Of a stretch of DNA of 64,000 nucleotides, positions 37,922-60,517 are shown piece by piece. A program made the translations under genes and the position numbers. Source of the stretch: an uncultured archaeon (GTDB lineage Archaea; Thermoproteota; Nitrososphaeria; Nitrososphaerales; Gagatemarchaeaceae); assembly GCA_963817525.1 (NCBI GenBank), contig CAWFOU010000007.1, positions 32,001 through 96,000 of the forward strand. The letters run 5' to 3'. The first letter of the stretch is position 1; every line of letters begins with the position of its first letter. The notes under the pieces were generated by a model. That model searched no databases, was not told the DNA's origin, and saw only the letters and a list, made by a program, of their open reading frames with translations.

Positions 37922-38701
37922 TCATGGTTCCACGATGAAATGAAGCACCGCGGTCTGTCCCCACTCGTCGGCGACTGCCACCGTGTAGACGCCCGGAGTG
38001 AACGGGATTGCGATCGGTGGCGTTGGAGGGGACTGCTGGCCAATGATGGGCTCGTTGAGCTCCTGCGAGTTGTTAAGGAGGTCCCAGTAGCCGTTCGTGG
38101 CAAAGGATAGAGACAAATGGTGCGGACCGAGCGTGAAGTTACCGTCGCTTGCAGGGATGTTCACTCCGGTTAGGTTGGCCATTGAACTGCTCGGTTGGAA
38201 GGTCAGGAGGTTTACGCTGACGCCTTGCGAACACCGGTAGCTGAAGGTGACGTTCGCCGCGCTCTGCAAGTCTTGAGCCGTGTAATTGCCCTTCAGCACG
38301 ACCGCCTCACCAGGAAGGTTGAGGTAGCATGGAGGCCACAGTGCCACCGGGATTCCTTGGAAGTCCCAGTCATTTGAAGTGCGTATGGAGTTGGTCGACG
38401 GGAAGGCGTTGAAGAGCGAGACGCTGGCGTTTAGGCTCTGCCCTACCTTGAGAGTGGTCGCGTTCAAAGCGAGGATCAGGTCGACGCCCGTGCTACCATT
38501 CGAATCTACCTCCATCGCCGCGGCGCCAAGGACGAAGGGCACGGTTACGGTTGATAAGGAGGTCGTGGTGGACGTGCTGACGGAAATCGAGGTCGAAGTG
38601 ATTGTCTCAGCGCCCCTCGCGCTGTTTCCAGAAAGGTAGCCAACGCCGAGGCTCGCCAAAACTAGAAAAGCGATAATCGCCGCGGTGGTCCCCTTCCTCA
38701 T
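37922..38701 (-). CDS. Membrane-anchored partner protein, 'GVYTV.VADEWG' family (cassette 1 partner)
   Basis: N-terminal TM, Thr/Ser linker, L.LNATTL..GQ.L..SVSLFN, GNYT, GYW, PGVYTVAVADEWGQ. Confidence 0.8.
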   Translation of the reverse strand: MRKGTTAAIIAFLVLASLGVGYLSGNSARGAETITSTSISVSTSTTTSLSTVTVPFVLGAAAMEVDSNGSTGVDLILALNATTLKVGQSLNASVSLFNAFPSTNSIRTSNDWDFQGIPVALWPPCYLNLPGEAVVLKGNYTAQDLQSAANVTFSYRCSQGVSVNLLTFQPSSSMANLTGVNIPASDGNFTLGPHHLSLSFATNGYWDLLNNSQELNEPIIGQQSPPTPPIAIPFTPGVYTVAVADEWGQTAVLHFIVEP

Positions 38702-38748
38702 CACTGCTCGTGTGTAAGTTTGCAAGAGGCCCCACTTTACTACACCAG

Positions 38749-39729
38749 TTAAGTACCACAGGCGGTTGAAAAGGTTTCCGAGAAGTCCGAACTTGAATCA
38801 ATGCTACTCGTTGGGGTAATGTTGTCGGTCGAAGTGCCGCTGCACGAATTCTGCATTGTGATTTGGGTTTGGATCATATTGTAGAAGCTACCGCATTGGA
38901 GGGGGTTTTGCAGGGAACTAAGGTAGTAACATTCGTCGTTACCGGAGAGGGTGAGACCGCTACCTGAGTTGAAGGTTGCAAGCGCGGAGCTCGAACCCCC
39001 AACTTCTATGCGTTCCACGAGGGTTTCTGCATAATCGGTAATCGCTGTGCCGGAAGGCGCTGCGGTTGACCCGCTCGAGCAAACCCATCCGGTGCCAGTA
39101 TCTTCGAAGAGGAAGGTCCGATAGTCATTGGAGGAGCCTCCCCAATAGTAACCGTTTTCAACTTCCGCTTGCATCGAATCTCCCGCAGCTAGTGTGTCGG
39201 TGGAGGCACATTGCATTTGGTTTGCCGGATAGAAGTCCCACCATCCGAAATAAGAAGGTGTGGGACAACTCAGCGACGTGCAGTTCATTTCGGCCTCCGT
39301 GCCCGTCTGCGCGAGGAAAGACGCGCTGTTGTTGTATATACCGTTGATGAGTCCGGTCCAAACGCCTACAGTACAATCGTAAGGAGACTGCATACAGTAC
39401 GAGTTGGAAGTAGCTGTGGGCGTCGCAAAGGACATGTCGCTGTAGACTTGGTTGGTTTGGACGCCGCCATACGTTGTATGCACTTGATATCCATCAACGA
39501 TGTGGTCGGTGCCAGAAGAAGCACAGTCGCCCCTGTTCACTTGAACGTTGACTACGTGAGTCAGGCTTGGGTTCTCAAATACCTGAATTCCAACGGAACT
39601 GCCGCAGTTCGAGCTCACGGAATCACGTAGGTAGAAATTCACTGAGACTGCAGTCATGCTCAGATCGGAACACGTGGCTGTATTGAACGAATATGACGGG
39701 CCGATTGAAACAAACGAGTAATTTGATAC
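38749..39729 (-). pseudogene. 5'-truncated secreted G1-like peptidase (cassette 1)
   Basis: VWTGL, LAQTGT, YFGWWDFYP, AGDSM, YAETLVER. The frame runs up to the DUF2283 stop with no signal peptide. Confidence 0.75.
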
Positions 39730-40002
39730 TCATTTGTGTGGGCGGCTGACGATAGACAATCTATTCGCGCTTTCTTTCAGCAACGCTCTGGCGTTGGTGG
39801 GCATCTTTTTCATGTCGTCGCTGTTGAGCTTACCAAGAGCGATTATCTCGAAACCAATTATCTCCCCGCGGCGGTTGCGCTTACCGACGAGATTTTCGGT
39901 GATTGGTTCAGCTTCACTCTCGCTTGACGGATCACCAAGCCAGATGTCGAGGGTGTCGGTGCCTGGGTTATAGTAGAGCGACCTCACTGTTTCTGTTTCC
40001 AT
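39730..40002 (-). CDS. DUF2283 domain putative antitoxin
   Basis: YYNP.TDTLDIWLGDP...GEIIGFEII. Confidence 0.8.
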   Translation of the reverse strand: METETVRSLYYNPGTDTLDIWLGDPSSESEAEPITENLVGKRNRRGEIIGFEIIALGKLNSDDMKKMPTNARALLKESANRLSIVSRPHK

Positions 40003-40304
40003 ATCGAATCACCGATCATCCTTTTGGTCAAGTAGGCCGTAATAATGAAGCCATCCCCATTTAAGAACTTGACTACGGTGCAGACAAGAAGCTTCGCCTT
40101 GAACTTGCCGTAGTGGAGGTGGACGCTATGATCTCTCTTGCTCCTCCTGACCTCGACTGGTTCGGTCAGCGAGCTCTTGACGAACTCTTCCAGTCCGCGC
40201 ATGGAAGGATGCTTGACGTTCACTATGTAATCCCAGTAGGACTTGTTTATTCTGATTCTCTTCTCAAGCTTCGAAACTACTTCAAAGAGCGGTTCGGAAG
40301 ACAC
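39984..40304 (-). CDS. DUF4258/RelE-like putative toxin
   Basis: W.YI...KHP.M, EP.EVRRS, VVKFLNGDGFIITAY; overlaps the DUF2283 gene. Confidence 0.7.
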   Translation of the reverse strand: MSSEPLFEVVSKLEKRIRINKSYWDYIVNVKHPSMRGLEEFVKSSLTEPVEVRRSKRDHSVHLHYGKFKAKLLVCTVVKFLNGDGFIITAYLTKRMIGDSIWKQKQ

Positions 40305-40354
40305 TGAAATTAAACGGCATCGCGCCTCTAGTTAAGAATAGCCGCAGCTTCTAG

Positions 40355-41121
40355 GATACCGTTAAGATGAGGGATTGAATCCTTTGTCTAGTCGTCTTGG
40401 TTTGATGGTTGAACGACCTTCAGGGCATACCGCACTTATGTGAACCCATACAATACGCTTCTGAAGGCCGTCCAGGACGCCCACGTCTTCAAGAGGAATA
40501 AAATTCCACCGGAGACAAAGGTGGTTGCCTCTCTGCTCTACTTGTCTGGACTATCCTACCGAGGGATGGCGTACCAGACGAGGCTTGTCGGGGCGAGCCA
40601 CGTCTCCGTCTTCAACTGGGTCCATGCGCTCAAGGGGATAGTCTCGCGCGTCCCAAGGAAGGAGAGGAAGATCGTCGCGATCGACGAGACCAAGCTCAAG
40701 ATCAAGGGCAGGCAGGTCTTCGTCTGGGCCGCCATCGACGCGGACACCAAGGAGCTCCTCGCGGTGTACGCCTCCTACTACCGGTCGCACATCAACACCA
40801 TCGTCTTCCTCAAGAGGGTCCTCGAGACGTGCATCGGCAGGAAGCCCATCGCCCTGGCGGACGGCGGGCCTTGGTACCCATGGCCTCTCAACGACATGGG
40901 CTTCAAATGGTTGCACGTGACGTTCGGCTACAGGAACACCATAGAGAGGTTCTTCCGGACCTTGAAGGAGAGGACGAGGCGGTTCTACAACAACCTGCCG
41001 TCGACGCGGATGGACAACCTCCAGTCGTTCATGGACGTCTTCATGCTCTGGTACAACCACCTCAGGAGGCACCAGGGGCTAGGAAGAATCCCAGTGGAAG
41101 TGATGCTATCTTAACGGTATC
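40355..41121 (+). mobile_element. Complete IS6-family insertion sequence (767 bp)
   Basis: Perfect 14-bp TIRs GATACCGTTAAGAT (40355-40368 / 41108-41121); 8-bp TSD GCTTCTAG (40347-40354 / 41122-41129). Confidence 0.95.
40440..41114 (+). CDS. IS6 family DDE transposase
   Basis: AIDETKLK, VWAAID, DGGPWY, RNTIERFFRTLKER, YNHLRRHQ. Confidence 0.95.
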   Translation: MNPYNTLLKAVQDAHVFKRNKIPPETKVVASLLYLSGLSYRGMAYQTRLVGASHVSVFNWVHALKGIVSRVPRKERKIVAIDETKLKIKGRQVFVWAAIDADTKELLAVYASYYRSHINTIVFLKRVLETCIGRKPIALADGGPWYPWPLNDMGFKWLHVTFGYRNTIERFFRTLKERTRRFYNNLPSTRMDNLQSFMDVFMLWYNHLRRHQGLGRIPVEVMLS

Positions 41122-41221: not shown

Positions 41222-41480
41222 TCAGATACGAGTTCGCTTGGCGATTTTCCCAAGGAAATAAACCCCGACGACGAGGAATCCGAAGATGGTCATCGGGAAG
41301 TATTCTTCGTTCGGCGGCGGAGGTATGCGGACGACGTTATGGTAGGTCTGAAAGACGCTGCTCACTCCCCAGGAGTTGGTGATCCCGAACAGGTACGTCC
41401 CGTTCGCGGTCATCGGCAACGATAGCTCATAGAATCCGTAGCATCCGTGGGAGAAGGCGGCTCCGCGTTCGATGTCAACG
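41222..41480 (-). pseudogene. 3' fragment of a membrane-anchored protein gene
   Basis: NGTYLFGITN...TM plus basic tail; no 5' part. Confidence 0.35.
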
Positions 41481-42110: not shown

Positions 42111-43256
42111 TTACCCCTTGACAACAAGAGGACAATCGTTTCCTTCGCAAACGAAGTTCAGTGAAGGCAAAGTGGCTCCGCTAGTCTGGGTAGTCGAAGC
42201 TCCGGAAAGCCCCCACTCGTTATCGATGTAGTTCTGAATGCCTGAATCGGATCCAAATTGATCGTAATAGCTGTACGAGGTAACGTGATTGTTGTCGGTT
42301 TCATATGTGAGGCCTGAACCATAGGCGTTAGTAGGCACCAACCCTCCTCCTATGTTGAAATTGGTTGTGTCATATGACATGGCATATGTATCTCCGGAGC
42401 TGAACGCATAGGCACTAACGCCCAAGTTCGAGTTATCGCTAAGGAAGTCACCTGCCGAGACGTCTGTGACCTCCATCGCCATTGAAGGGTCAACCGAGTA
42501 GCTTCCTTGATCATACGATACTGCACTCGTTGTGGTCCCAATGCTCGAGATGGAATTCGAACTACAGGACGTGTCAGCTGGATCCAATAACATCTGTGTC
42601 GACGGACTACCATAGGTAGTGACCCCAGACGAGGTGACAACCATCAGATAGGTGAGAGTACCGCTTTCACTCACTATGAACCACCAACCAGTGATGCTAT
42701 TGTGTGTTACATATTCTACTTCATCCGTCACCGACGCGGTCCCGCTACTCACCAAATCCGTGCTCCAGGTGTAGGTAAGGGCTCCTACGGAGGAGGAGCC
42801 GCTGAGCGCTTCAATCAGCGTCACGAATGGAACCGGTTCGTCGTTTGAACTGGAATACTGCACCGCCCCTTGGAAGACAATTCCGGTGATGGTGTATTGA
42901 GTGGAGCTGCAAGTGAGCGTTCCACCTGCGCTGAATGGAGCATTGACCAGAAAATAAGCAAAATAGGTATCCGTCCCCATCGTGTACGACGAAGCTAAAT
43001 CCATCCATGCAGTCCCAACACTCGTTTGACCCGTTGAGGCAAGGGTCCCTATTGCCCAATCGGGGTCTGAACCGGGACATTCTCCATACACACACGACTG
43101 AGGCACTCCTAAACCTCTAGGTGATGTAGGATTTCCTGAGGCCGTAGCATGTGCGCTATCCAGGAATACGGCTGCCGCCGGAGAAGAGACCATCAATACG
43201 AGCAGCACGATCGGCAAGACCTTCGCCAATGTGGAATTCCTCAACAACTTCATCAT
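42111..43256 (-). CDS. Secreted divergent G1/thermopsin-like putative peptidase (cassette 2)
   Basis: Signal peptide; YFLVNA, IVFQGAV (putative Q), PSMAMEV (putative E); motif order parallels 50121-51584. Confidence 0.6.
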   Translation of the reverse strand: MMKLLRNSTLAKVLPIVLLVLMVSSPAAAVFLDSAHATASGNPTSPRGLGVPQSCVYGECPGSDPDWAIGTLASTGQTSVGTAWMDLASSYTMGTDTYFAYFLVNAPFSAGGTLTCSSTQYTITGIVFQGAVQYSSSNDEPVPFVTLIEALSGSSSVGALTYTWSTDLVSSGTASVTDEVEYVTHNSITGWWFIVSESGTLTYLMVVTSSGVTTYGSPSTQMLLDPADTSCSSNSISSIGTTTSAVSYDQGSYSVDPSMAMEVTDVSAGDFLSDNSNLGVSAYAFSSGDTYAMSYDTTNFNIGGGLVPTNAYGSGLTYETDNNHVTSYSYYDQFGSDSGIQNYIDNEWGLSGASTTQTSGATLPSLNFVCEGNDCPLVVKG

Positions 43257-43260
43257 TCTG

Positions 43261-43376
43261 TCCAGAAGTCATTTGCTCGGACCTAAAAAGGAAGATTCAC
43301 GACTGATAACACAGTTGAGTAATCAACTGATAACAATGTTCTGTAAAAATCATAGGCAAGCGCATCTACCATCGTC
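43261..43376 (-). promoter_or_regulatory. Conserved cassette promoter/operator, copy A
   Basis: 75-bp core 43274-43348 identical to 54954-55028 and 57294-57368; TTTTTAGG box ~25 nt before ATG. Confidence 0.85.
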
Positions 43377-43730
43377 CTAGACCTCCCCTGTCTCCCGGTA
43401 TCCCTTCAAAGTATCTTCTATGTACCTGAGTACGACTGGATTTTTACAGGCGAACTTGTAGGTCTTCTACCGTCCATGAACTCTTGTTGTGACCTCGGCT
43501 ACGAGGTGAAGCCGCAGCAACGAATACTCGGGCTCGTATGAGCCTGGTCGGCCGCGAATGACTCCGCTAACTTCACTCGGGTAGAGACGTGTCTTGTGAC
43601 AAATCTCGGAGACAGACAGTGCATCCAAGCTCTTCATGAGAGTCCAGAGCACGAGACGCCGAACCCGGCTTCGCAATGCCACGTTAAGAGAGCGACGATC
43701 GACATTGGCGTCCCGGGAGGTATCAGACAT
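43377..43730 (-). pseudogene. EarA/DUF1495-like winged-helix regulator with in-frame TAG at 43467-43469
   Basis: ALRSRVRR.VL, SEI....YPSEV.GVIRG..G.Y....SLL.L.LV; the frame continues KTYKFACKNP...GYRETGEV*. Confidence 0.75.
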
Positions 43731-43910
43731 GGCAAAGCCAGAAGATTTGTCCCACTGCCTCCGTATTTAGGCATTCTCACGAAATTGAAAGCCAAAAAGT
43801 GATGTTACGGCTAAATCTGCCACGATGAGTTCAACGCCTCTTTAAGGCCAACCGGTAATCTGACACCTCGAATAGAGATATTCTCGATAACATATGGTTG
43901 CCATGAGCAC

Positions 43911-43955: not shown

Positions 43956-44335
43956 TGGCCCGCCTGCTTTTGGCTCATAATCGCTTTGGACCCAAGAGGG
44001 TGGTTTATACCCTTAAATATTCTAGCACGACAATGCTTTCGAGATGTTATATGGAGAAGGTTAAATGGAACGGGAGCGCTTCCAGTCCAATATGACGATC
44101 CGGTGGTTCTAATCGCAAATCAATCCGTCGAAACTCTTAGCATATTGCTAATTGGTATTGTATCACTTTTGCGGTGACAGGCTCAATCGAACTTTACCGC
44201 GCGGCCCTTGAAGTAAGAAGGCGTTCTCTCAATGCGGATTCTGGCCGCCTAGGCGAAAATGCAATCTAGCCGCTGCGACGAGTCCAGCGCTCGCGGTCGT
44301 TCGGCTCTCCGCATGCTCGGCTGGTCATGTGAACT

Positions 44336-44456
44336 CTAGGCCCTAGTGATCGGCTGGATGTGGACTTCCTCGGCCTGCTCGCCCACCGCGCATCCGCAGC
44401 CCGCATGGTGTGCCCCTTCTCAGGGTGCCATGGTAGAGCCCGTCCTCGAGCTTCTT
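44336..44456 (-). repeat. Displaced copy of the 3' end of tes (KKLEDGLYHGTLRRG...EEVHIQPITRA*)
   Basis: 121-bp direct repeat of 11864-11985 with mostly third-position changes and a 1-bp deletion; ends at TAG. Confidence 0.92.
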
Positions 44457-44708
44457 GTGGTTCTCGGCAAGAGCGCCTGCCTTCAGCCGCGCGATGCATA
44501 ACCTTGGGAGGGTTCCAGGCCCGACCCGTCTAACCGACCTGAGTTGATCTGGATGCTTGTCTAGGAAGGCTCTGACACGTTCTTTTGCCGCGTCCATCTC
44601 TGAGAGTTTTCCGCTGTCAAGCCTCTTCTTTCTATCGACGATAACTTGCGGATCCTCCTGCGCCTTGGATTCGAGCGAGAGGGACCGCATTGCCTTTTCC
44701 AAGTCCGA

Positions 44709-45805: not shown

Positions 45806-47077
45806 TTATGTGCCACAGCTACTCTGCCAGGTCTCGGTGAAATATCCGTGCACTCCGTCGGCTATAACGTCCCCTGGGTAAAGGTCAGCTTCGTTGCATC
45901 CGCTGATATCTATTTCATAACTACCATAATAGTTGTCATTATAGTTTGTATAAATGCTCCAGTTGTCCGGCTCATAAGTAGAGCCAAAGTCGAGATCGGC
46001 GCCATAGAATCCATAGTCGTTGGTGAGTTCAGGCAACACGTTGGAACCGGTCGTTATGTCGAATATCTCAGAATAGTATGCGTCACCCATTCCACTGAAG
46101 GTAGAACCCGAGGTGGAAAAGGGTATGCAAGTTTCTCCCGCTCCGCCGTCTGCAGATGAGTCTGCAATGTCGAAGACATAGCTATCCAGTGAGTTACTGT
46201 TGGAATAATATTTTGCACTGTACACTATCGAGGCCATAGCGTCACCGGACGAAATTGCGTAGTCCCAAGAAAGCCCAGCCCCGCATATGGTTGGAGAGTT
46301 CGACCCGTTGTATAACCAATAGAAGGCTTCATAGGATGATGTGCAACTGCCTCCACTGGTGCAGGAAAGCTCGTCGAGGACGCCGTCCATGGCTGCATCA
46401 TAAGACGGGCCGATGCCGCCCGACTGCGCCGCCGTCTCTTGATACATTTCACAATCCGAGCTCACACAAGCGTTCGATGGACTTGAGGGCTGGGAGATTG
46501 CTTGCGCTGCATATTCAGCAGTAATGTCGAGTACCGGAACGGTGGCCCCAGAATCGTTGTAGAAGTCGTACCCCGAAATTCCAGTCGATGTTGTTATCGC
46601 AGGAGATACTCCCCCATGGAAAGGAGATGGGAGAGGCGGATAGAAGGTTGAACTCTGAACGGATGACAATGTTGGGTTCTCCCCCACGTCAAGCTTGCCC
46701 ACCAATGTGTTACCGTTCATTATGTCGAAAACAAAGTGGACAGATTGAATCGTCGCCTGGCATGTAGTCATTCGGTAGCCGCTATCGAATGTTGCGTTGT
46801 ACTGGGAAGTTAGTGCCCGGAACTCAGAAGCCGACTCCGCCAGTTGGACTCCTGTCGCGAGATCAACACTAGCTTGCGTCGACATGATATCGGACGCAAC
46901 ACGGGCACCACACTCACTCGCCGCGTTAGAATTGGCCCCGGAGTTAGTGTCAGCATGAGCTAGATTCACGCCCGACAATCCTCGCGAGAATACGAGGAGG
47001 GCGAGAACAGCCAGTATGATTCCGGCATTCACGCTAGGCCCTGCTGCATTAAGTCGATTGCGATTGGAGACCATCAT
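45806..47077 (-). CDS. Secreted G1-fold protein with pro-domain and degenerate catalytic positions (cassette 3)
   Basis: Colinear with 56059-57276 (ISGYD, C...CE, C....CTSSYEAFY, ISSGD, YYSEIFD). Confidence 0.65.
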   Translation of the reverse strand: MMVSNRNRLNAAGPSVNAGIILAVLALLVFSRGLSGVNLAHADTNSGANSNAASECGARVASDIMSTQASVDLATGVQLAESASEFRALTSQYNATFDSGYRMTTCQATIQSVHFVFDIMNGNTLVGKLDVGENPTLSSVQSSTFYPPLPSPFHGGVSPAITTSTGISGYDFYNDSGATVPVLDITAEYAAQAISQPSSPSNACVSSDCEMYQETAAQSGGIGPSYDAAMDGVLDELSCTSGGSCTSSYEAFYWLYNGSNSPTICGAGLSWDYAISSGDAMASIVYSAKYYSNSNSLDSYVFDIADSSADGGAGETCIPFSTSGSTFSGMGDAYYSEIFDITTGSNVLPELTNDYGFYGADLDFGSTYEPDNWSIYTNYNDNYYGSYEIDISGCNEADLYPGDVIADGVHGYFTETWQSSCGT

Positions 47078-47118: not shown

Positions 47119-47159
47119 CAAGAATCACAACTGTATACACAGCTGCATAATCAGTTGTG
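47119..47159 (-). promoter_or_regulatory. Diverged cassette operator, copy E
   Basis: AAGAATCA-CAACTG-N6-CAGCTG-N6-CAGTTG aligns without gaps to the conserved leader. Confidence 0.7.
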
Positions 47160-47207
47160 GAACGGCGTTTCGGTTCAAAGTCAGTCTCGCATGCATGCAA
47201 GATTTAG

Positions 47208-47562
47208 TTAGCTCTCTCCGACTCTCCGATATCTTTCGAGAACTCCTTTCGATATAATTCAACAGAATCGGGTTCTTGCAGATGAACTTGTACGTCTTCT
47301 GTTGTCTACTGCCTGCGACTTTCGAGATGCTTTCGCTTACGAGCTGAAGTCGAAGCAAGGAGTATTGGGGCTCATACTGACCTTTGACGCCACGAATGAC
47401 ACCAGCCACTTCACTCGGGCTAAGACCTGCGTGGCGGCCAATCTCCGAAATGGATAGAGAGGCTCCACTGTTCTTGAGAGTCGAAAGCACGAGGCGCCGA
47501 ACACGGCTCTGCAGCGCGATACGAAGCAGATCCAGAATTTGCTCCACTTCGCCTGTGCTCAA
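47208..47562 (-). CDS. EarA/DUF1495-like winged-helix regulator, probably the intact copy
   Basis: LQSRVRRLVL...SEIGR.AGL.PSEV.GVIRG..GQY....SLL.L.LV..KTYKF. Removing one base at ~47248 gives ...VLERYRRVGES*, matching the paralog ends. Confidence 0.75.
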
Positions 47563-48127: not shown

Positions 48128-49240
48128 CTAATCCGAGGATGCAACCAAAACCTGATTCACGTACGAGAAACGCACCCCGTTCAGGAGGGTACCGGTGACG
48201 GTGAGGGGATATTGCTCGGCAGTATTGATTCCCGCGCCAACCAAAGTAGGCGCGCTCTGAATCCTCTGACCGGTCAGCACTGGGTTCGACGAACTCGCGT
48301 TGAATGAGAAGGCGAAAACGGTCGTCGGAGTACCGACCAAGCCCCTGAGGCTGGCGTTCAACGAAGCGATAGGGGCCAGACCGATGTTCTCCAGCGACAT
48401 GGTGACCTCGTGTCCCTCCGGGCTGTACCCCGCGATTGCGACCGAGACTGCCCCGACGTGATTGTTCGACGTCGCTGAGACTTGGAAGGGCGCGCAGATG
48501 GTCTGATTCCACTCGTCTTCTACGGCGAGGGTATACTGCCCAGGCGAGAGGTAGTGGAAGTAGGGCGAGCTCGTCGTGGCCGCGCCTAGGTCTAGGTAGC
48601 CCTTAACAGGAGCCCAGTAGCCGAACAAGCTTGTTCCTTCGGGGCAATGGGTATCGGATGCGTTCCCACAATATTCGGTAGTCGCGTTGGTCGCAAGGCG
48701 GTATAGTCCCCCCAGAACGCCAAGGCTCGCATTGCTGCTGTCGGGCAGGAACACGACCGAGTCGGATCCCTGGACAATGCAGGGAAGTGCCACGGGAGGC
48801 GCAAGCCAGAGAGGGGTCACTGCGGACGAGAGGTTCTCTGACGAGTAATGGCCTTGGAACAGAGCGTAGGCCCCAAGAGAGAACAGGGTGTTGTCACCGC
48901 ATACGAAGTCGTCGTTCGTCCAAGCCGCTATCGTGGAGTTGGGCGAGTTCGCGATGGAAACTGAGAGGTTCTGGTCGAGCGGGTTGTAGAACGAAATCTG
49001 CGCACCCAATGCGGAGCCCATCCCAATCGTGGTGGCGTTGAGATTCAGGTTGAGCTCGAGACCTGAGGGCGCGGTAACCGAGTAGGTACTCGGTAGTTGG
49101 GAGTGCGATGACTGCTGTGAGGACCTTGAGGAAACCTTGGCCGCGGACGAGTAAGCGCTGTTGATTTCAATCGCAACCAACGAAGTCACAAGAATCACCA
49201 CGGCGACCGCCGTCATGATTCGATGCGAATATTCCGACAT
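48128..49240 (-). CDS. Membrane-anchored partner, 'GQYTL.VEDEW' family plus extra Ig-like domain (cassette 4 partner)
   Basis: TM; SGLELNLNLNATTI..G; GHYS..NLS; GYW; PGQYTLAVEDEWNQ. Confidence 0.75.
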   Translation of the reverse strand: MSEYSHRIMTAVAVVILVTSLVAIEINSAYSSAAKVSSRSSQQSSHSQLPSTYSVTAPSGLELNLNLNATTIGMGSALGAQISFYNPLDQNLSVSIANSPNSTIAAWTNDDFVCGDNTLFSLGAYALFQGHYSSENLSSAVTPLWLAPPVALPCIVQGSDSVVFLPDSSNASLGVLGGLYRLATNATTEYCGNASDTHCPEGTSLFGYWAPVKGYLDLGAATTSSPYFHYLSPGQYTLAVEDEWNQTICAPFQVSATSNNHVGAVSVAIAGYSPEGHEVTMSLENIGLAPIASLNASLRGLVGTPTTVFAFSFNASSSNPVLTGQRIQSAPTLVGAGINTAEQYPLTVTGTLLNGVRFSYVNQVLVASSD

Positions 49241-50120: not shown

Positions 50121-51584
50121 CTAGAAAAGTGCCGTAGCATAGGTATTGGTTGCTCCGGTACAGACGTACCCCGTGTCACCTATGTCAACGTCTGGCGATG
50201 AGACGCCTGTACACTGGGTGTTACCCCCTTCGAGGAACCACGACGGAGTAGCTACGCACTCCCCTACAGCAGTGTATGGCCAAGAACCGGCCGGGCTACA
50301 GCTAGGGCTGTCATTTGAATTGACTACATAACCTGTCGATGGGTTGTTCCAGGATCCCGATGAATAATACTCGAACGAAGGACTCTGGGTGTTCGACATG
50401 CCACTGAAGACACTCTGTGTCGAGTCGTATGATTCGAAGGCGAATGGTTCCTGTGCCACGCCGTAATAGGTAGTACTACTTGGACAGCATTGCGTGATCC
50501 AAGATGCAAATGGATAGGAGTTCGCACCGAAGAGTACGTTCCAGCCCGAGCTGTAATAGATTTCCATGGTGTTTGAACCAGAAGAGCCTTCGTTTGCGAT
50601 GTTCGCAGCGTAGTAATTGCACGGGTTTGACGAGCAGTCGTTGTAGAAGAGCACCAGTTCCCAATTGTGATTGTTGGTTCCATTAGAGGGGTTTTCGAGG
50701 ACCGCTTGCAGAAACATATTTGGATCGATTATTGCATTGACGGTGAAGAAGACTGGTGAACCCGACGGTGGCGAGAGGCTAGGATAGCTGAGACCTACGG
50801 AAACCGCGGTGACCGAACTCCAACTAATTCCTGTATTGCCGCATTGCGTTTTGGCCGAACTGTTGCAAAGGCCTACGCCGAGCGCCCAAGAGGGGTCCTT
50901 GCCATGCCCATGCCATATTCCCGTGGCCTGACTCTGTGAAGCGCCGGGAGACGATTCATGGTTCTGGCCCACTCCTATACTGTGGTTGATCGTCGAGTTC
51001 GCGCTCGTGAGCGGAATGCCGGCGTTTAGCCTTACTACAACGAGCTGGGTAACGGAATAGCCCGAGACTGGGTCGACGTAATGACACCCTACCTCAAAGC
51101 TCCCGATGGCCCCGGTTTCTGGCGCCGTGGGGTCTACTCTAATCAGCAAGGACATCGACGAACTCTTTCCGTATGGTACAGTTATTGAAGGGACAGACGT
51201 GGCCACCTGCAACCAGCTCGGGATTGCCCCGCCATGCGCGGGGAAAGGATAGATTGCAAAGGTAACAACCACCGTGGAATTCGGCGATACGGAAGGGTTC
51301 GCCCACGGAAATGCGAAGTCAACTATGACCGACTCTGAACCTGGTTGGGCATTGAAACTCATGATCCCCGAATCTGCGGAGCCGTTTAGGTAAATACCCG
51401 CCAAGACGGGATCTGCGAGGCCCGCTGCTGACCCGGAATTATTTGTGGCCTGTCGGGACGTGTTGGCGGCCGCGCTCGTGTTCGCGTACGCACTCACACT
51501 GGTTGAAAGCATGCTAATCAATAGAACTCCGAGAATCAACAGAACGCTTGAGCTTCTTATTTTTGAAATCATTCGTGAGTTCAT
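50121..51584 (-). CDS. Secreted Ig-like plus divergent G1-like putative peptidase (cassette 4)
   Basis: Signal peptide; FFTVNA...MFLQAVL (putative Q), EPFAFESYD (putative E); Cys-rich. Confidence 0.6.
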   Translation of the reverse strand: MNSRMISKIRSSSVLLILGVLLISMLSTSVSAYANTSAAANTSRQATNNSGSAAGLADPVLAGIYLNGSADSGIMSFNAQPGSESVIVDFAFPWANPSVSPNSTVVVTFAIYPFPAHGGAIPSWLQVATSVPSITVPYGKSSSMSLLIRVDPTAPETGAIGSFEVGCHYVDPVSGYSVTQLVVVRLNAGIPLTSANSTINHSIGVGQNHESSPGASQSQATGIWHGHGKDPSWALGVGLCNSSAKTQCGNTGISWSSVTAVSVGLSYPSLSPPSGSPVFFTVNAIIDPNMFLQAVLENPSNGTNNHNWELVLFYNDCSSNPCNYYAANIANEGSSGSNTMEIYYSSGWNVLFGANSYPFASWITQCCPSSTTYYGVAQEPFAFESYDSTQSVFSGMSNTQSPSFEYYSSGSWNNPSTGYVVNSNDSPSCSPAGSWPYTAVGECVATPSWFLEGGNTQCTGVSSPDVDIGDTGYVCTGATNTYATALF

Positions 51585-51989: not shown

Positions 51990-51991
51990 GG

Positions 51992-52109
51992 GCAGTATCA
52001 AGCGTGGTATTTTTATGCTCCAGTCCGCTTAAAGCAGCACAATGGAATCCAGTCCGTCGGAGGAACCTAGGTTCCGAACCCCCCGGGGTTCGAATCCCGT
52101 CGGGCCCGC
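51992..52109 (+). repeat. 118-bp direct repeat (integrase promoter, 5' end and tRNA-like att core), copy 1
   Basis: Near-identical to 57842-57959; contains GGGTTCGAATCCCGTCGGGCCCGC. Confidence 0.9.
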
Positions 52110-52761
52110 CTCCACCCGGGTCCGGAACCTGCCGTTAAATGGGGAGAAGCACCTCTTCGTCATGGTCGGTGGCCAGCTGAGGAGGACGTCGAAGTACGCC
52201 CACCTCCTCGAGGAGGATCCCGCGTTCAGGGCCTGGCTCGCGAACGTCGTGAGGGCATCGCACAACACGGGAGGGCACTACTTCCTCAAGGTGGGGTTCA
52301 TCTGCGACGAGGTCTACCACATCCCGCCATCCGGGATAGCTGTGATGAACACGGTCGAGCTGATGACCTTCGTCTCGAACGTCATATCGGAACTGGAGGA
52401 GCGGGGGGCCGTCGGGACCACCATCAACTCCTACGTAAAGGCGGTGAAGTCCTGGGCGCGCTTCGACGGCAAGAGGCTGGACGAGAAGGTCAACGTCCCC
52501 GAGAGCGAGAACATGTACGCCGGGGAGGTGGTCCCCAGGCCGGATGAGGTCCAGACGCTCCTGGACCACGCGCCCCTGAGGGTGAAGGTGGCCGTCTCCC
52601 TCATGGCGTTCGCGGGCCTCCGCCCGGGCACGATAGGGGACTCTCGCGGCCTGGACGGGCTGAAGGTGAAGGACCTGCCCGAGATGGAGGTCAGGGACGG
52701 CAGGATTGCCCACTCGAAGGTGCCCGTTCTTGCATTTACTGATTCTTTGAAGAGCTTTTGA
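52042..52761 (+). pseudogene. SSV-type tyrosine integrase, C-terminally truncated
   Basis: GSNPVGPA (tRNA-encoded), SYVKAVKSW, VP..DEV..LL, LMAFAGLRP, DGLKVKDLPE; lacks HxxR and the catalytic Tyr. Confidence 0.85.
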
Positions 52762-54018: not shown

Positions 54019-54937
54019 TCAACTATCCTTCCAGTCGAGGGTGAGGTCAGGGCCGCTGTTCCAATTGACCGGCATACTTGGGGTGCAGAAGCTGGTAGAA
54101 CTCGAGGACTCAGTAGCGGAAGCACCACTCGGACTCGTTACCGAAGAGTAAGAGCTAAAGGTGTCTGAAGTCGTTCCAGGCATTTGTGTGCAGGTGGTCA
54201 AATTGTACTCTTCGAGGGAGCCGAAAACGGCCGTTTGGTACTGGTCCGTGGTGCACTCTGTCAGATATGAGCCTTGGCTCGCGGTGACATCCACGGACTC
54301 TACGTAGTACGCCGGTCCGTCGCTGGCGCACCCAGAATAACTTGATTCATACGTAATCGTCCCTTTAATGGTGTCACCGGCAGTGGCGCTGTAAGGGGTG
54401 GCATAGTTGGGGGGGGTTGCTTCCGAAAAGGGCATATGCCACAATCCTCCAGCTATTGGAGCAGTTAGATGAGGTGATACAGCCATAAAGCAGAACAGGC
54501 TGCACTATGTCATTAGTGTTGTCAAGGCCGTCGTACAACGCGGAGAATTGGTCCCCGCTGTAAGTCCCGCTTGAGGGAACTGGAGGAGTGGTCCATTCGT
54601 CCTGGAAGCTGGTCCAATAGGCAGTGGGCGTCAAATCCAAATCTCCTTCTGCAGGATGGCCGGAGGTGCCCAATACAAAACTCGTCATCTGGCAGGGGAA
54701 TTTTGTTATCGCCACGGCGGTGCCATTCGGAAGCGTGACTCTGCCAATTGGACTGTCAACAATTGAACCTGACGGTACTTCTCGAGCACAAACCATACCA
54801 CGTTGATGCGAGGATACCACGGCAGAATTCGAATTCGGAACGGCGGCTGCCGCCGACATTCCTCCTGATGCGACCAAGAGTGCTACCACTGCGAACAGAC
54901 CTACGACCTCCACTTTGGATATTGCCCGACGCATCAT
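54019..54937 (-). CDS. Secreted G1-like putative peptidase (cassette 5), frameshift at ~54427
   Basis: WTTPPVP, LYDGL, IVQPVLLYG (Q), W.IVAY, AGDTIKGTI, GSLEEY...C (E); two ORFs joined across an A-run. Confidence 0.7.
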
Positions 54938-54942
54938 TCCGT

Positions 54943-55095
54943 CAGAAGTGATCTGCTCGGACCTAAAAAGGAAGATTCACGACTGATAACACAGTTGAGT
55001 AATCAACTGATAACAATGTTCTGTAAAATTACGGGCAAGCATACCTGCTATCCTACTAGACTTCCCGTGTTTCTCGGTATCCCTTCAAAGTTTCG
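54943..55095 (-). promoter_or_regulatory. Conserved cassette promoter/operator, copy B, with a 3' stub of the EarA-like gene
   Basis: Identical 75-bp core 54954-55028; 55056-55095 encodes ...ETLKGYRETREV*. Confidence 0.85.
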
Positions 55096-55108
55096 TTCTG
55101 TACCGGGT

Positions 55109-55990
55109 TCAACCCCGGTTTTCCTCGGTAAGGAAGATGACACTCCCCCCGGTGTACCCGATGATGAACCCTGTCAACGGAGAGTCGGGGCATTCGTTGA
55201 GACCCGGGTAGGGCGGATAGTCTGAGTTGTTGACCTGAGAGGGTGAATAGCCGACTGCCAAGGGAATTTGGATGCAAGCGACCACGCCTGGGTTGAAAGA
55301 AAGCGCCGCGCTCGGCCCAAGACCGTCGAACCCGGTCGAGTTCTCTCCGGTGGAGATCTGGTACTCGACGACGATGCTCTGGTTCGAGTCGAGAGAGAAG
55401 CTCCCGGGCGACGGCGTCACGGTCACGTTGTTGGCCGGAACTATGAGCGTGTCGTTGACCCCTCCCGGGGTTATGACCGCAGTGTAACCGCGCCACTCGG
55501 TCGCGTTCAGCACCGGGGGCGACGAGTAGTTCAGGTTGACGCCATCGTGTGAGAAGTAGTCTATGAACAAGACGCAGATGTCCATGGTCGAGCCGGCGTG
55601 AACAACGAAGACCGGTTCTGCGTATGCAAAGACCGAGGTGCCGTTAGCGAAATTGGTGGTGTTGGAAGGCGGGAGCTTGTACGGCTCGGTGCACGGCGCC
55701 GGGCCCGGCGCCGTGCTGGTCGAGGAGGCTGCGCTCGTTGAGGAGGATTCGCTGGTGGCACTCGAAGAGGTTGTGAGCGTTGAGGTCGCACTGGCCTGCG
55801 GACGGTATGAGGCCTCGTAGATGACGGCACCTAACAGTATCACAATTGTGGTTGCAACGACAAGTCGAATCGCTCGACGGGCTCCAGGTCCCTTCGGACT
55901 GTTTTCCATGTCAAACATCAGCCCTCTTGTTTGCGAACGTGCGGCCTCGTAAATAGGTTTCTCTGAGTTCATTCTTTCTTTTCGCAACAC
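55109..55990 (-). CDS. Membrane-anchored partner protein (cassette 6 partner)
   Basis: TM, Ser/Thr linker, Cys-containing beta domain (PVFVV..GST..ICV; IPLAVGYSPSQVNNSD); start uncertain. Confidence 0.7.
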   Translation of the reverse strand: MLRKERMNSEKPIYEAARSQTRGLMFDMENSPKGPGARRAIRLVVATTIVILLGAVIYEASYRPQASATSTLTTSSSATSESSSTSAASSTSTAPGPAPCTEPYKLPPSNTTNFANGTSVFAYAEPVFVVHAGSTMDICVLFIDYFSHDGVNLNYSSPPVLNATEWRGYTAVITPGGVNDTLIVPANNVTVTPSPGSFSLDSNQSIVVEYQISTGENSTGFDGLGPSAALSFNPGVVACIQIPLAVGYSPSQVNNSDYPPYPGLNECPDSPLTGFIIGYTGGSVIFLTEENRG

Positions 55991-56058: not shown

Positions 56059-57276
56059 TCAATCGCAACTTCCACGCGTGTACTCACTAGAAAGCCAGTG
56101 AGTAGTAAAGCCGCTTGAGGTGATGGTGTTCGTGTTGACGTTTTGCACGTCAGTGCATGAGAAGGGGTAATCCACCTCAGGAGTGCCATGGTACATCTGG
56201 AAAGTCTCGGTGTCCCCGTTTTGGTAGGCTGTGTACGGAGATATGTTGGAGCCAGTGGAAGCATCCTCCAAGTCTAGTCCCGTGAAAGAGACCGTCCCAA
56301 ACTTGGCCAGCGATACATCAGTCGGTCCGTCGTAGGGAAGCTCTGTAATCCACTCAGCATAGGTCGGAGCCGTCATAGTAGAGAAAGAAATGTCCCCTGC
56401 ATAGCAGCTGGTGTTGCTTGTCACATCGTCGATGTTGATCGAATAGGTTGAGTCGCTTTCGGAGTACAGTACATTGTTGATGACGTTGGTCTCTATGGTA
56501 TTGTCGGAGGAAACGGTGGTATCATTGTTACCAGAAACGCAGTCTACTACAGCCCCCACTTGTGTGGAGGCATCAAAGGTCTCGTACCATGCGAAATAGC
56601 TGGCCGTGCAAGTGCTTGAGGGTCCGCACTCGCCGGTAGTGCCATCTTGCACTATGTCGCCGTCACCGTTGCTTTGATCGGTCAATCCGGTCCAAGTCGA
56701 TACCTCGCAAGCCACGTCGTTTTCGCATCCGGTAGACGGGTATTGAGCATCTGATTGGTTGTATTCTATATAACTGGCATAGGTGTCTATCCCACTTCCA
56801 GGGCTCGCGTCGTACCCTGCATAACCTTCAGAATCGACCGTATTCGCCCTCTGATCAGGCTGTATGGAAGAACCCAATATCGCAAGACCTTGCGATTCTG
56901 AAATTACTAGATTGGCCACTACGGAGCCGGTGCTGTTGTGCAACACGAACACGACGTTGTAACTCTCAACCTGCTGCTCGCACGTAGAGGTGGAGATTGT
57001 ACTGTCAATCTGGAAGATGCTGTTGAACGTCGGCTGGTAGTATGAAGTGACTCCTTGGGAGTACAGGCTCGAGAACCGAGCATTTGCGATTGCAGTCGTC
57101 TGATTCATGCTGTCATAGGTCTGTCGAATAGCGGACTGGCAATTGGCAGAAGGTGCAGCGATAGAATTGCTAGCTGAGGTGGCGTTTCCTGCCGGGAGTC
57201 CACGAGAAGCAACCAAAAGGACCAGAATTGCAAGCATGCCTGCGACCCCCAGTTTGGACATAGCTCGGCGCGTCAT
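56059..57276 (-). CDS. Secreted G1 family glutamic peptidase with pro-domain (cassette 6)
   Basis: YAGYD, TWTGL, IVQDGT (Q), YFAWYE, YAEWITE (E), LAKFGTVSF. Confidence 0.85.
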   Translation of the reverse strand: MTRRAMSKLGVAGMLAILVLLVASRGLPAGNATSASNSIAAPSANCQSAIRQTYDSMNQTTAIANARFSSLYSQGVTSYYQPTFNSIFQIDSTISTSTCEQQVESYNVVFVLHNSTGSVVANLVISESQGLAILGSSIQPDQRANTVDSEGYAGYDASPGSGIDTYASYIEYNQSDAQYPSTGCENDVACEVSTWTGLTDQSNGDGDIVQDGTTGECGPSSTCTASYFAWYETFDASTQVGAVVDCVSGNNDTTVSSDNTIETNVINNVLYSESDSTYSINIDDVTSNTSCYAGDISFSTMTAPTYAEWITELPYDGPTDVSLAKFGTVSFTGLDLEDASTGSNISPYTAYQNGDTETFQMYHGTPEVDYPFSCTDVQNVNTNTITSSGFTTHWLSSEYTRGSCD

Positions 57277-57280
57277 CCTG

Positions 57281-57396
57281 TCCAGAAGTGATTTGCTCGG
57301 ACCTAAAAAGGAAGATTCACGACTGATAACACAGTTGAGTAATCAACTGATAACAATGTTCTGTAAAATCACGGACCAGCGGATCCACCTATCGTC
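57281..57396 (-). promoter_or_regulatory. Conserved cassette promoter/operator, copy C
   Basis: Identical 75-bp core 57294-57368. Confidence 0.85.
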
Positions 57397-57753
57397 CTAG
57401 ACCTCGCCTGTCTCTCGATATCCCTTCAAAGTATTTTCTATGTAACTGAGTGTAGTCGGGTCCCTACAGGTGAACTTGTAGGTCTTCTGCCTTCAATCTT
57501 CATGAACTTCTGTGGCGACCTCGACCACGAGGTGCAGTCGCAGCAACGAATACTCGGGCTCGTATGAGCCTGGTCGGCCACGAATGACTCCGATAACTTC
57601 ACTTGGGTAGAGACGTGTCTTGTGACAAATCTCGGAGACAGAAAGCGGATCCAGAGTGTTCATGAGAGTCCAAAGCACCAGACGCCGAACCCGGCTTCGC
57701 AATGCGATATTCAGGAGACGACGATTGACATTGGCGTCGCCAGGGTCAGACAT
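57397..57753 (-). pseudogene. EarA/DUF1495-like regulator with in-frame TGA at 57493-57495
   Basis: Close paralog of 43377-43730; the frame continues RQKTYKFTC...GYRETGEV*. Confidence 0.75.
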
Positions 57754-57841
57754 GACAAGCCCAGAAGATTGTTCTGCTGCCTTCGTATTTACGCATTTTC
57801 ACGCAATCGAAGGCCGGAAATTGATGTTACGGCTATGTCTC

Positions 57842-58270
57842 GCAGTATCAAGAGTGGCATTTTTATGCTCCAGTCCGCTTAAAGCAGCACAATGGAATCC
57901 AGTCCGTCGGAAGAAACAAGGTTCCGAACCCCCCGGGGTTCGAATCCCGTCGAGCCCGCTCCCAGCCGCGTTCGAGGCCCAGCGTTAAGCGTGGTCCATG
58001 CCTCGAGCGGCATTGTCAGCGGGGAGGAGAGGAGGACTTATCCAAGTACTCGCACCCCGAGGGGGACGAGACATTCAGAACGGGGTGCTGGAACGCCCTT
58101 CGCGGGTCGTATGCGACCAGTTCGGTCCTATCTTCTCAGGATTGGAAGACGTGCGAGCTCTGCAGCGTCACACCTGAGGATAGCCTCGATGACCAAGGTC
58201 GAGCTCATGCCTTCACCAAGGCAATCTCGGAGCACGAGAAAGCAGGCGTATCAGGCGGAACCATTGGTTC
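57842..58270 (+). pseudogene. Second, decayed integrase 5' region with att-core repeat (copy 2, 57842-57959)
   Basis: MESSPSEE.RFRTPRGSNPV, then frameshifted SKYSH..GDETFR...YLLRIG similar to the 52042 integrase. Confidence 0.75.
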
Positions 58271-58782: not shown

Positions 58783-59193
58783 CTACCCTGCCACAGTAAT
58801 GGACACTACCGTGGCGGCCGAGAGTGCAAGGCCGGCGGGGCTAACGGCAAATAGGGTCGCGGAGAACGCGCCAGCGGGAAGACCGAACTGCGCTACCCAG
58901 GCCGTTCCATTCCCCTCAGCGGGAAGAGTTACAGTCGCGGTGGAGATTTCGACTGTCTGGCCAGCATTGTTATGGAATACGCCGAAGACGATCCCGATGG
59001 AGGCTCCGTTCGCAGTATTCGTGTAGTTGATTGCTACTGACTGGTAGGCGCCGAGGTTGCCGACGGTCGGAGTCCCCGCCGTTATCCAACATGGCTCTTG
59101 ACAGGTGGTGGCCTGGACTGAATGAACTGCCCCGCCCTGGCAGAAAAATAGGACCGTGGTAATCAAGGCCGCCAATGCTGTTCGACTTCTCAT
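58783..59193 (-). CDS. Small secreted Ig-like protein (cassette 7 partner)
   Basis: Signal peptide; GVFHNNAGQTVEISTAT..L...GLPAG.F.AT.FAVS..G.ALS. Confidence 0.7.
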   Translation of the reverse strand: MRSRTALAALITTVLFFCQGGAVHSVQATTCQEPCWITAGTPTVGNLGAYQSVAINYTNTANGASIGIVFGVFHNNAGQTVEISTATVTLPAEGNGTAWVAQFGLPAGAFSATLFAVSPAGLALSAATVVSITVAG

Positions 59194-59321
59194 TCGGTCT
59201 CAACTCCATACCTATGCCTGCTGGCCTTAAAGTAAATGGAAGGAGTCCTCCTCTTGCTTTCCGCTTCGAAGAGCCCTTCGAAGCGGGCTAACCTCGTTCC
59301 TGAACCTTGACGGCGAGGTAG

Positions 59322-60329
59322 TCATCGGAAGTATTGAACGGGTTGCATTGACACCCCGGGCTGGTTTGAAAGCTGTGGCTTTTGCGAGGCAGGGGCAGCG
59401 GAACCAGAGGTGCACGATCCCGTTATTTGACAGCCTATCGGCAAGGACTGTCCATGGACCTTTCCATGATGTATCTTCCACGGCGCACAGGTCCATGTTA
59501 ATGTTGTCGTGCTTGAACCGGATGATACCGAATAGCATTGTAAATTCGACCCCTCCAATGTGAGATAATTGTTAGGAGTTGTTCCCGCTATCAAGGGGAA
59601 GTAGGTGTTCACGGAGCAATACGAAGGATTTGATTCACACCCTGCTGTCACAACACCAACAACGCCACTACTAGTAAATCCCGTGAGGCTTAGAGTGGTA
59701 CTCGAACTCACAGTAGATGGTGCGAAAGTACTCGTGCACGAATTGCCGTAGCAAAATGGATAAAGCTGGAACCACACCGCAGCTACGTTGTTGAATGTTG
59801 GGTAGGAAACGGTGGGCATTGTCAAATACGTACTAGTGGTGACGTCATAGACGCTTGCGCTCGAGTAGACCACTGTATAGGACGTTCCGCTCCCGCTAAA
59901 TGTGCCTGAGGTGTAGAATTGATACTTGTCGGTATAGCCAGGGGTTCCCGACTGACATTGACTGTAAATCGTTCCGCCCCAATAGACTTCGACTGCCTCA
60001 AGACAGCTATGCGTGTTAGAGGAGTCAAACATGACCACGACCTGAAACAGTGCGCTAGCCAGCTCTTGGTTGTCCTGAAGACTGAAACACCAAGTACCCG
60101 TGGTAGTCTCACAGCATGTACTCGCACAAGTGTACAGCTTTGCGGATGTCGGTGCGGTACTCCACGATATAGTTGACGTCTGGGACCATGAAGACGACGC
60201 GCTTGCCGGAGGAACCTGACTCAATGCTGCTAGAACAGTAGCTAGAACTATCGAGATACCCACGAGGCGCGAATTGTTGCGTGTGCCTCCTAAGGTGAAA
60301 GCTTTCCGTGCACCGGGCATCATTCGCAA
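59322..60329 (-). CDS. Secreted thermopsin-like (peptidase A5-like) protein (cassette 7)
   Basis: Signal peptide; WCFSLQDN...LFQVVV, YGNSCTSTF, TLEGSNL resemble thermopsin-family motifs. Confidence 0.55.
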   Translation of the reverse strand: MRMMPGARKAFTLGGTRNNSRLVGISIVLATVLAALSQVPPASASSSWSQTSTISWSTAPTSAKLYTCASTCCETTTGTWCFSLQDNQELASALFQVVVMFDSSNTHSCLEAVEVYWGGTIYSQCQSGTPGYTDKYQFYTSGTFSGSGTSYTVVYSSASVYDVTTSTYLTMPTVSYPTFNNVAAVWFQLYPFCYGNSCTSTFAPSTVSSSTTLSLTGFTSSGVVGVVTAGCESNPSYCSVNTYFPLIAGTTPNNYLTLEGSNLQCYSVSSGSSTTTLTWTCAPWKIHHGKVHGQSLPIGCQITGSCTSGSAAPASQKPQLSNQPGVSMQPVQYFR

Positions 60330-60374
60330 GCACCTTCAACGTTCAGTTTGGATATTGCACGGCGAATCATTGTG

Positions 60375-60517
60375 TCTGGAAGGAATTCGCCCGGAAATAA
60401 TAAGGAAGATTCACGACTGATAACACAGTTGAATAATCAACTGATAAGGAACAAGGTTCTGTAAAATCTAGGGCGAGTGCATCTACCGTCGTCTGAATCT
60501 CCCCTGTTTCCCGATAT
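60375..60517 (-). promoter_or_regulatory. Conserved cassette promoter/operator, copy D, with a very short EarA stub
   Basis: AAGGAAGATTCACGACTGATAACACAGTTGAATAATCAACTGATAA...GTTCTGTAAAA; CTCCCCTGTTTCCCGATATC matches the EarA-like 3' end. Confidence 0.8.

Follow-up and report, generated by a model that had tools for sequence, protein, structure and literature searches.

The 64,000-nucleotide stretch of archaeal DNA analysed here (hereafter the window, G000:C7:32001-96000, where G000 is this genome) comes from a member of the Gagatemarchaeaceae (Group I.1c) and carries an island of seven enzyme–partner gene pairs, in which large secreted-type genes rich in Cys, Ser and Thr alternate with smaller genes that have a hydrophobic N-terminus. 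The pairs belong to a real cassette system that is family-wide and akin to systems of the protease–inhibitor or effector–immunity kind. The explanation favoured here, at about even odds (~0.5), is that they are mobile cassettes, each encoding an exported glutamic peptidase and a cognate surface inhibitor that would shield the producer's envelope. Large genes are named E1-E7 and partners P1-P7 by rising coordinate; E8/P8 is an eighth pair outside the window.

Enzyme fold, catalytic residues and integrity

The open reading frames (ORFs) listed in the initial annotation are all present on the minus strand, and the alternation of large Cys/Ser-rich genes with smaller genes that it described is confirmed, except that the gene listed at 54019 spans 54019-54937 in two frames. 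The large genes are as follows:

38749..39657, minus strand: E1, G1-like peptidase domain with Q117/E215, 5'-truncated
42111..43256, minus strand: E2, secreted protein
45806..47077, minus strand: E3, G1-like, Met at the catalytic Gln position, Glu kept, from family alignment
50121..51584, minus strand: E4, signal peptide, prodomain of ~130 amino acids (aa) and glutamic-peptidase-fold domain with Q293/E384, from model and conservation
54019..54937, minus strand: E5, signal peptide of the shared chassis described below, short Cys-bounded propeptide and G1-like domain with Q146 and a later Glu, in two frames
56059..57276, minus strand: E6, intact prepro-G1 peptidase with Q210/E312 (PF01828, E-value 1.8e-5, above cut-off)
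59322..60329, minus strand: E7, secreted Cys/Ser-rich protein with one real homologue

A peptidase fold had been proposed for the whole set. Five of the seven proteins (E1, E3, E4, E5 and E6) are tied by sequence comparison and modelling to the glutamic-peptidase fold, because E6 matches the Pfam G1 family, E1 and E3 are E6 homologues, E5 has a profile match and E4 a predicted structure of this kind; for E2 and E7 the fold is unproven. The large proteins had also been described as mutually divergent, but they are not all unrelated, since E1, E3 and E6 are detectable homologues (29% identity), with a signal peptide, a propeptide of ~100 aa and a G1 domain. The profile of this family matches the canonical G1 proteins of this genome with 99% probability and with Gln and Glu in register, and of its 54 members 51 have the Gln and at least 52 the Glu. 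The E5 family matches the E1/E3/E6 profile at 82%, and one of its members matches PF01828 (E-value 5e-4). A sequence search with E6 against the PDB gave no relative. The canonical G1 peptidases themselves lie in the window at 14702-16237 and 17788-18978 (PF01828, E-value ~1e-34), have serine/threonine-rich (S/T) linkers and extra C-terminal domains, and have near-identical copies on the small contigs C10 and C14. An ice-binding-like domain (PF11999) is fused ahead of E6-family peptidases and of another secreted domain (P0008, P0012, L220:1978-3765).

E2, E4 and E7 have no significant profile match to G1, and E4 is linked to it by fold only. The model of the E4 domain (predicted local distance difference test, pLDDT, 73) is a two-sheet beta-sandwich whose top Foldseek match is scytalidoglutamic peptidase (E-value 7.8e-5). 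A wide structural search placed neprosin first (Z 13.5, root-mean-square deviation 3.4, 184 aligned), above HC7 (Z 12.3) and lectin or GH16 folds (no more than 9.6), two uncharacterised proteins lying in between. Of the folds named in the initial annotation, G1 and neprosin were thus recovered for E4, and thermopsin (A5, PF05317) was rejected, its sole match in the genome being on contig C8 and none in the island. The Gln/Glu register of E4 is taken from a low-scoring profile alignment together with conservation, Q293 being kept in 110 and E384 in 112 of 113 aligned rows. There are 111 database relatives of E4, mostly shorter proteins, and those aligned have a hydrophobic tail at the C-terminus. 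Searched against the Atlas, the E4 domain matched unnamed clusters only, and assignment of the E4 prodomain to the P6-type domain was unsupported (1.4%). The E4-domain-related family (L083-L088; P0030-P0136) has 100-plus members in Nitrososphaerales and Bathyarchaeia with near-invariant Gln and Glu, its aligned members have a C-terminal membrane anchor, and it is a probable unannotated glutamic-peptidase family.

The E2 family consists of E2 and three known homologues; the Glu motif is present in all four and Gln in three, being shifted in the fourth. A single-sequence AlphaFold model of E2 reached a pLDDT of 34. For E7, one real homologue was found among 1.84 billion representatives, and this two-member family has neither a conserved Glu in G1 order nor a clear dyad. 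E7 gave no significant match to G1, to thermopsin or to two other chassis-linked proteins; its resemblance to thermopsin is confined to a motif.

The Gln motifs quoted in the initial annotation, each with a later Glu, are found in five enzymes (QTGT at Q117 of E1, QGAV at Q128 of E2, QAVL at Q293 of E4, QPVL at Q146 of E5 and QDGT at Q210 of E6), with both residues in G1 register in E1, E4, E5 and E6. The G1 motif order attributed to most of the set does not extend to E3 or E7. Seven active enzymes cannot be counted, given the missing catalytic Gln of E3, which is probably an inactive homologue, and the truncation of E1, which lacks its signal peptide and most of its propeptide and is cut beside a toxin–antitoxin (TA)-like pair. 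Among the five proteins tied to the fold, at most E4, E5 and E6 appear both intact and catalytically complete. E5 has a frameshift near 54409 in a run of C, and short-read contigs from two of four runs (two studies) lack that base; the frameshift is therefore probably an assembly error and the gene intact, and the alternative that E5 is a pseudogene was rejected on the same contigs. An intact relative of E5 is 55% identical to it. The enzymes are 300-490 aa long with one catalytic domain each, and Pfam delivery or repeat domains were not found in them.

Enzyme–partner pairing across genomes

The E1/E3/E6 family is present in 29 of 97 genomes of Gagatemarchaeaceae, with 0-12 matches per genome that are often clustered. 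Adjacency was counted for 52 enzymes in 40 loci and five regions of this genome; the loci were chosen around enzymes, the gene caller was crude, related genomes are not independent, and hand curation of pairs was not used. A co-oriented gene with an N-terminal transmembrane (TM) segment is the next gene downstream of 35 of the 52 enzymes and the next upstream of 7, against a background of 84/829 for other genes in the same loci and 93/845 in 800 kb of this genome. The proposed succession of enzyme and anchored gene therefore exceeds chance.

Tree and Mantel tests used 46 pairs, after 22 of 68 rows had been dropped by hand (fragments, duplicates, canonical G1 genes and rows with no clear co-oriented partner), which biases the set towards pairs. 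The partners fall into 19 clusters, and 16 of them are P1-family. On the enzyme tree (a quick tree and FastTree were used), partner family changes 13 times, compared with 20.2 times in shuffles (minimum 17; 0/500), and P1-domain distance follows enzyme distance weakly (rho 0.26, p=0.007, 15 pairs). Random assortment of partners in related genomes, which had been named as a possible refutation, is not seen; partner type follows enzyme clade, with swaps.

At least three more enzyme–partner clusters occur in this genome (G000:C7:697273-702394, 1046281-1051490 and 1246034-1251131), and those at 697273 and 1246034 hold two further divergent enzyme types that the profiles missed. At L190 (in genome G017), an E4 homologue is split by inserted sequence and its P3-family partner is kept.

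Partner proteins and propeptide copies

No Pfam family names the partners, which are listed here with the regulator R that lies among them:

37922..38698, minus strand: P1, N-terminal TM, S/T stalk and probable Ig-like domain; 24-gene family in this genome
41761..42048, minus strand: P2, protein of 95 aa with a single TM; its family has 7 members in this genome
44709..45584, minus strand: P3, TM, S/T stalk and beta-rich domain; a homologue follows an E4-type gene in G017
48128..49240, minus strand: P4, surface protein of the P1 family by homology, extended by a further domain at the C-terminus
49413..49826, minus strand: R, membrane-bound helix-turn-helix regulator between E4 and P4
52875..53678, minus strand: P5, TM-anchored, with a copy of the E5 propeptide motif (residues ~104-134), from profile and alignment
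55109..55990, minus strand: P6, TM, S/T stalk and beta-rich domain; 42% identical to the partner in the eighth cassette
58783..59193, minus strand: P7, secreted; corresponds, as a free copy, to the C-terminal domain of an exported protein of ~1,000 aa (45% identity over 96 aa)

The propeptide copies in E5-type partners point towards inhibition. When the E5-family propeptide profile was run over 29,881 ORFs, it matched only enzymes, P5 (E-value ~3e-4 to 6e-4), the partner of the E5 homologue in genome G001 (E-value 5e-18) and an orphan in G020. The G001 partner is a multi-TM protein unrelated to P5, and the G020 match is its orphan relative. In direct alignment of 46 partners to the E5 propeptide, the top two scores (144 and 58) belong to the same two E5-type partners, P5 and that of G001, and the next is 39. 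Two different scaffolds thus seem to display an E5-type propeptide copy, as a tethered inhibitor might; an alternative for the G001 copy is plain partial gene duplication. G020 also has an anchored, enzyme-free copy of the E4 prodomain (E-value 4e-38). On contig C1 of this genome, two exported proteins without a peptidase domain (G000:C1:723349-723825 and 732127-732942) resemble the E6-family propeptide by eye, and one of their genes is directly upstream of a P6-family gene; the propeptide profile missed both.

The nearest named ESM Atlas clusters for the P1 domain are BsuPI proteinase-inhibitor-like (0.88-0.89, below 0.9 and hence a lead only). A complex prediction for the E1 peptidase domain with the P1 domain scored 0.02 against a mark of 0.32, which bears on neither side. 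R is directly upstream of a P1-family gene at four of its six copies in this genome, and also in G009, and is possibly a sensor for an inducible surface protein. Ten of 23 genus genomes each have a single ORF, 830-1,140 aa long, that contains the P7 domain. Searches with the 1,066-aa protein that carries it gave no name, so that we infer only tentatively that the ~1,000-aa protein is a surface-layer (S-layer) protein.

A recombining regulatory chassis

The initial annotation envisaged one regulon with a fixed chassis and exchangeable enzymes. The latter part is borne out by an EarA-like gene, a leader and a signal-peptide start that precede unrelated enzyme families in several genomes; a single regulon is not. 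A leader of ~100-170 bp, with a mean column identity of 83%, is found ahead of enzymes in G008 and G009 as well as of E2, E5, E6, E7 and E8, so that it stands before only four of the window's seven enzymes. The regions upstream of the other three differ: an intact EarA-like gene precedes E3, a repeat of another kind precedes E4, and E1 has neither. There are also several short direct-repeat tracts, with 12-bp repeats upstream of E4 (window 51626-51670); others are a 43-bp repeat pair to the left of the island (window 37069-37193) and 29-bp repeats to its right (61210-61323). The chassis features are:

43253..43751, minus strand: leader with direct repeats and an EarA-like copy with an internal stop, before E2
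47125..47562, minus strand: intact EarA-like winged-helix regulator (PF07381, E-value 1.7e-8), before E3
54933..55110, minus strand: leader and 3' stub of an EarA-like gene, before E5
57273..57777, minus strand: leader and an EarA-like copy with an internal stop, before E6
60332..60518, minus strand: leader and an orphaned, out-of-frame chassis signal-peptide start, before E7; an enzyme-swap scar

The EarA-like subfamily has nine matches in 5 of 23 genus genomes, seven of them ahead of families tied to the G1 fold and two ahead of secreted proteins whose fold is unproven. E5, E6, E8, the E4 homologue P0022 (of which the signal peptide only was seen) and another protein type all begin with the chassis signal peptide; at E7 its 16 initial codons are left, out of frame. 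This distribution over varied enzymes, together with the remnant at E7, indicates exchange of enzyme genes at the point where the coding region begins. Among the EarA-like copies of this genome, those ahead of E2, E6 and E8 are broken and the one ahead of E3 is intact, so trans-activation by the intact copy is possible.

Accretion of the island

The island was built by accretion and is not one operon, as seen from its TA-like pairs, IS6 transposase, AbiEii-type gene, 3' copy of tes, att-like repeats and integrase remnants. Most of it has a guanine–cytosine content of 50-55%, compared with ~61% for the main contigs. Its other features are:

39730..41114, no strand assigned: TA-like pair (DUF2283 gene and small partner) and IS6-type transposase, interrupting the E1 cassette
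44335..44464, minus strand: copied 3' end of tes, the tetraether synthase gene; a probable cassette boundary
51992..52761, plus strand: att-like repeat that looks like the 3' end of a tRNA and overlaps a tyrosine-integrase gene that is truncated (weak XerA match, E-value 0.004)
57842..57988, plus strand: second att-like repeat, 88% identical to 51992-52138

The two att-like repeats bracket the E5/P5 and E6/P6 block. Their link to a tRNA comes from a BLAST match to a tRNA-like locus only, and Rfam found no tRNA at them. Excision of the bracketed block was not accepted, as the joint that skips it occurs in one contig with just 25 bases on one side. At 41246-41724 the window holds a frameshifted copy (84%) of a membrane-protein gene at C7:1262132-1262618. 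The array was first taken to end at 60517; it continues to an eighth pair at G000:C7:97795-100426, in which the enzyme is 52-57% identical to E6 and the E6/P6 pair is co-duplicated. Also outside the window lies a gene read from its sequence as tyrosine-integrase-like.

Weighing the explanations

If these are mobile cassettes of peptidase and inhibitor, the EarA-like activator and leader would drive expression, and the leader and signal-peptide start, across which enzyme exchange is visible in the sequences, would act as a recombination anchor. The prepro-enzyme would be exported and, by analogy with G1 and neprosin biology, would activate itself at low pH. The partner, held on its S/T stalk, would block the cognate enzyme, in the E5 lineage presumably through the tethered propeptide copy. 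Partner genes would also spread as orphans, which are observed, and could then protect against the enzymes of neighbours. The context is conflict-like, with patchy spread, TA modules, insertion-sequence and integrase remnants, and broken and swapped copies. Should the partners be inhibitors, we lean slightly towards enzymes that serve mainly antagonism. The fuller picture of polymorphic antagonism, in which glutamic peptidases would shear competitors' envelopes, Ig-like domains, tethered propeptides and S-layer-like decoys, recruited convergently, would be the antidotes and dozens of orphans would be stockpiled in mobile rows as acquired defence, is possible but doubtful.

Several observations weigh against peptidase–inhibitor cassettes. 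The partner families have no mutual homology and, in hidden Markov model (HMM) searches, none to any inhibitor family; the BsuPI HMM (PF12690) finds nothing in the genome, and an alignment of 40 P1 members matches nothing in the PDB and no consistent Pfam family. The propeptide copy occurs in just two of five E5-type pairs, its match in P5 is short, and no partner of an E1/E3/E6-family enzyme has one. A TM partner was not called for 17 of the 52 enzymes. Clade tracking can show inheritance as units, not binding, and linkage alone suffices for it. E3 retains a partner despite its missing catalytic Gln. Nor are the pairs exclusive one to one, as first proposed: both the P3 and the P1 family are found behind more than one type of enzyme, P3-family genes following E3 here and an E4-type gene in G017, and of 56 genes from the seven partner families in this genome, 47 do not directly follow an enzyme. 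No enzyme lies upstream of the closest P7 relative (73%), and a candidate enzyme is present at one of four P7 loci. P4 lies in a module of R plus a P1-family gene that occurs three more times without an enzyme, and whole rows of partner-type genes lack enzymes. Orphans of this kind are as compatible with a general surface repertoire as with acquired immunity (PMC12247911). Long rows of small genes for TM-anchored, S/T-stalked surface proteins, with no enzyme among them, are located at G000:C1:352000-367000 and 720000-745000 and at C7:146000-152000 and 589000-607000.

The most serious rival to peptidase–inhibitor cassettes is surface-tethered scavenging, in which the partner would dock an active peptidase or capture its substrate, so that a heterotroph keeps the products and enzyme diversity widens the range of substrates. 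It is an unlikely reading. According to the accessible text of Sheridan et al., Gagatemarchaeaceae are heterotrophs of acid soils that have peptide transporters and secrete low-pH peptidases, and G01 is among the columns of the supplementary peptidase tables (PMC10640624). The enzymes have no anchors of their own and the partners are anchored; a relative of E4 that has an anchor occurs widely, though not as half of a pair. On the other hand, a copy of the propeptide would more naturally block the active site than serve as a dock, tethering would not call for 19 unrelated partner clusters in 46 pairs or for such patchy presence, and no transporter genes were seen among the ORFs of the island.

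Less probable is a variable-surface repertoire for adhesion or for evasion of viruses or epibionts, in which the partners would belong to a large mobile pool of surface proteins and the peptidases would ride along in their cassettes and at most process or shed them. That only 9 of the 56 partner-family genes are behind an enzyme speaks for this account, as do the enzyme-free rows, the separate module formed by R and P1-family genes and the nature of P7 as a free domain of a large exported protein. It fits poorly with the asymmetry of gene order (35 versus 7 of 52), with clade tracking and with propeptide copies in cognate partners. Finally, it is improbable that the large proteins are glycopeptidases, lectins or adhesins on the same beta-sandwich, forming a two-part surface receptor with the partner: the fold is common to HC7 (crystallised with a triglycopeptide), GH16 and lectins, E3 lacks the Gln and no G1 assignment exists for E2 and E7, but near-invariant Gln and Glu stand in G1 register in three families, and glutamic peptidases outrank lectins in the structure searches with E4.

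Implications

Competition among archaea is poorly known, and in the literature searched no protein inhibitor of a glutamic peptidase encoded beside its enzyme turned up. For both, these pairs offer candidates that can be tested directly, with ectodomains that are small and soluble and acid proteases amenable to expression. In a lineage common in acid soils, peptidase–inhibitor cassettes would explain what dozens of surface genes without annotation do. Even if the partners are tethers, there are new glutamic-peptidase-fold families here that Pfam misses, including the 100-plus-member family related to E4.

Comparison with known systems

G1 peptidases in archaea and protease–inhibitor operons in bacteria are already known. 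Searches of the literature on archaeal glutamic peptidases, this lineage and archaeal antagonism, judged from abstracts and mostly non-subscription papers, found no such pairs or arrays. The available text on G1 peptidases notes archaeal homologues and gives their in vivo role as unknown (PMC3009609). The enzymes resemble the G1 eqolisins of MEROPS (scytalidoglutamic peptidase and bacterial pepG1) in their Gln/Glu dyad, beta-sandwich and secreted zymogen form, but here there are several highly divergent families, a propeptide that is ~100 aa long or Cys-bounded, a downstream membrane protein and arrays on mobile islands; no such propeptide is present in this genome's canonical G1 genes (window 14702 and 17788). 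Neprosin, a glutamate-class prolyl endopeptidase, is the best structural match of the E4 domain (Z 13.5) and is described, in the text available, as a zymogen with a beta pro-domain (PMC9343461). It differs in having two glutamates where E4 has an invariant Gln and then Glu, and identity is 6-13%.

Secreted proteases with adjacent cognate inhibitors are reported for SpeB–Spi, staphopain–staphostatin and Bacteroides Bfp–Bfi; in the accessible account, Spi is an analogue of the SpeB propeptide, some of the Bfi are predicted to be lipoproteins and mobile elements carry some bfp genes (PMC2873492). Those operons encode cysteine proteases and have one inhibitor fold per family, whereas the present system combines glutamic-type enzymes, an archaeal host, many unrelated partner families and orphans, with inhibition only predicted. 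Protealysin and emfourin share one operon and have been proposed to act in interbacterial competition, but as described in the part of the source available they are an intracellular metalloprotease and a soluble inhibitor, neither polymorphic nor arrayed (PMC9505478). The nearest archaeal analogues, neither with this layout as far as the accessible text goes, are VARTIG and haloarchaeal antagonism through protease precursors (PMC12893001). Among systems with a conserved front and an exchangeable payload, VARTIG of the Thermococcales also has small downstream genes, but the available description centres it on a large multi-Ig protein with no peptidase (PMC8416519). Polymorphic toxin systems and arrays of orphan immunity genes (for orphan immunity, PMC12247911) share with the island the conserved front, the exchangeable payload, the small downstream genes and the orphans; the conserved part of the cassettes is merely a promoter and signal peptide, where polymorphic toxins have delivery or repeat domains.

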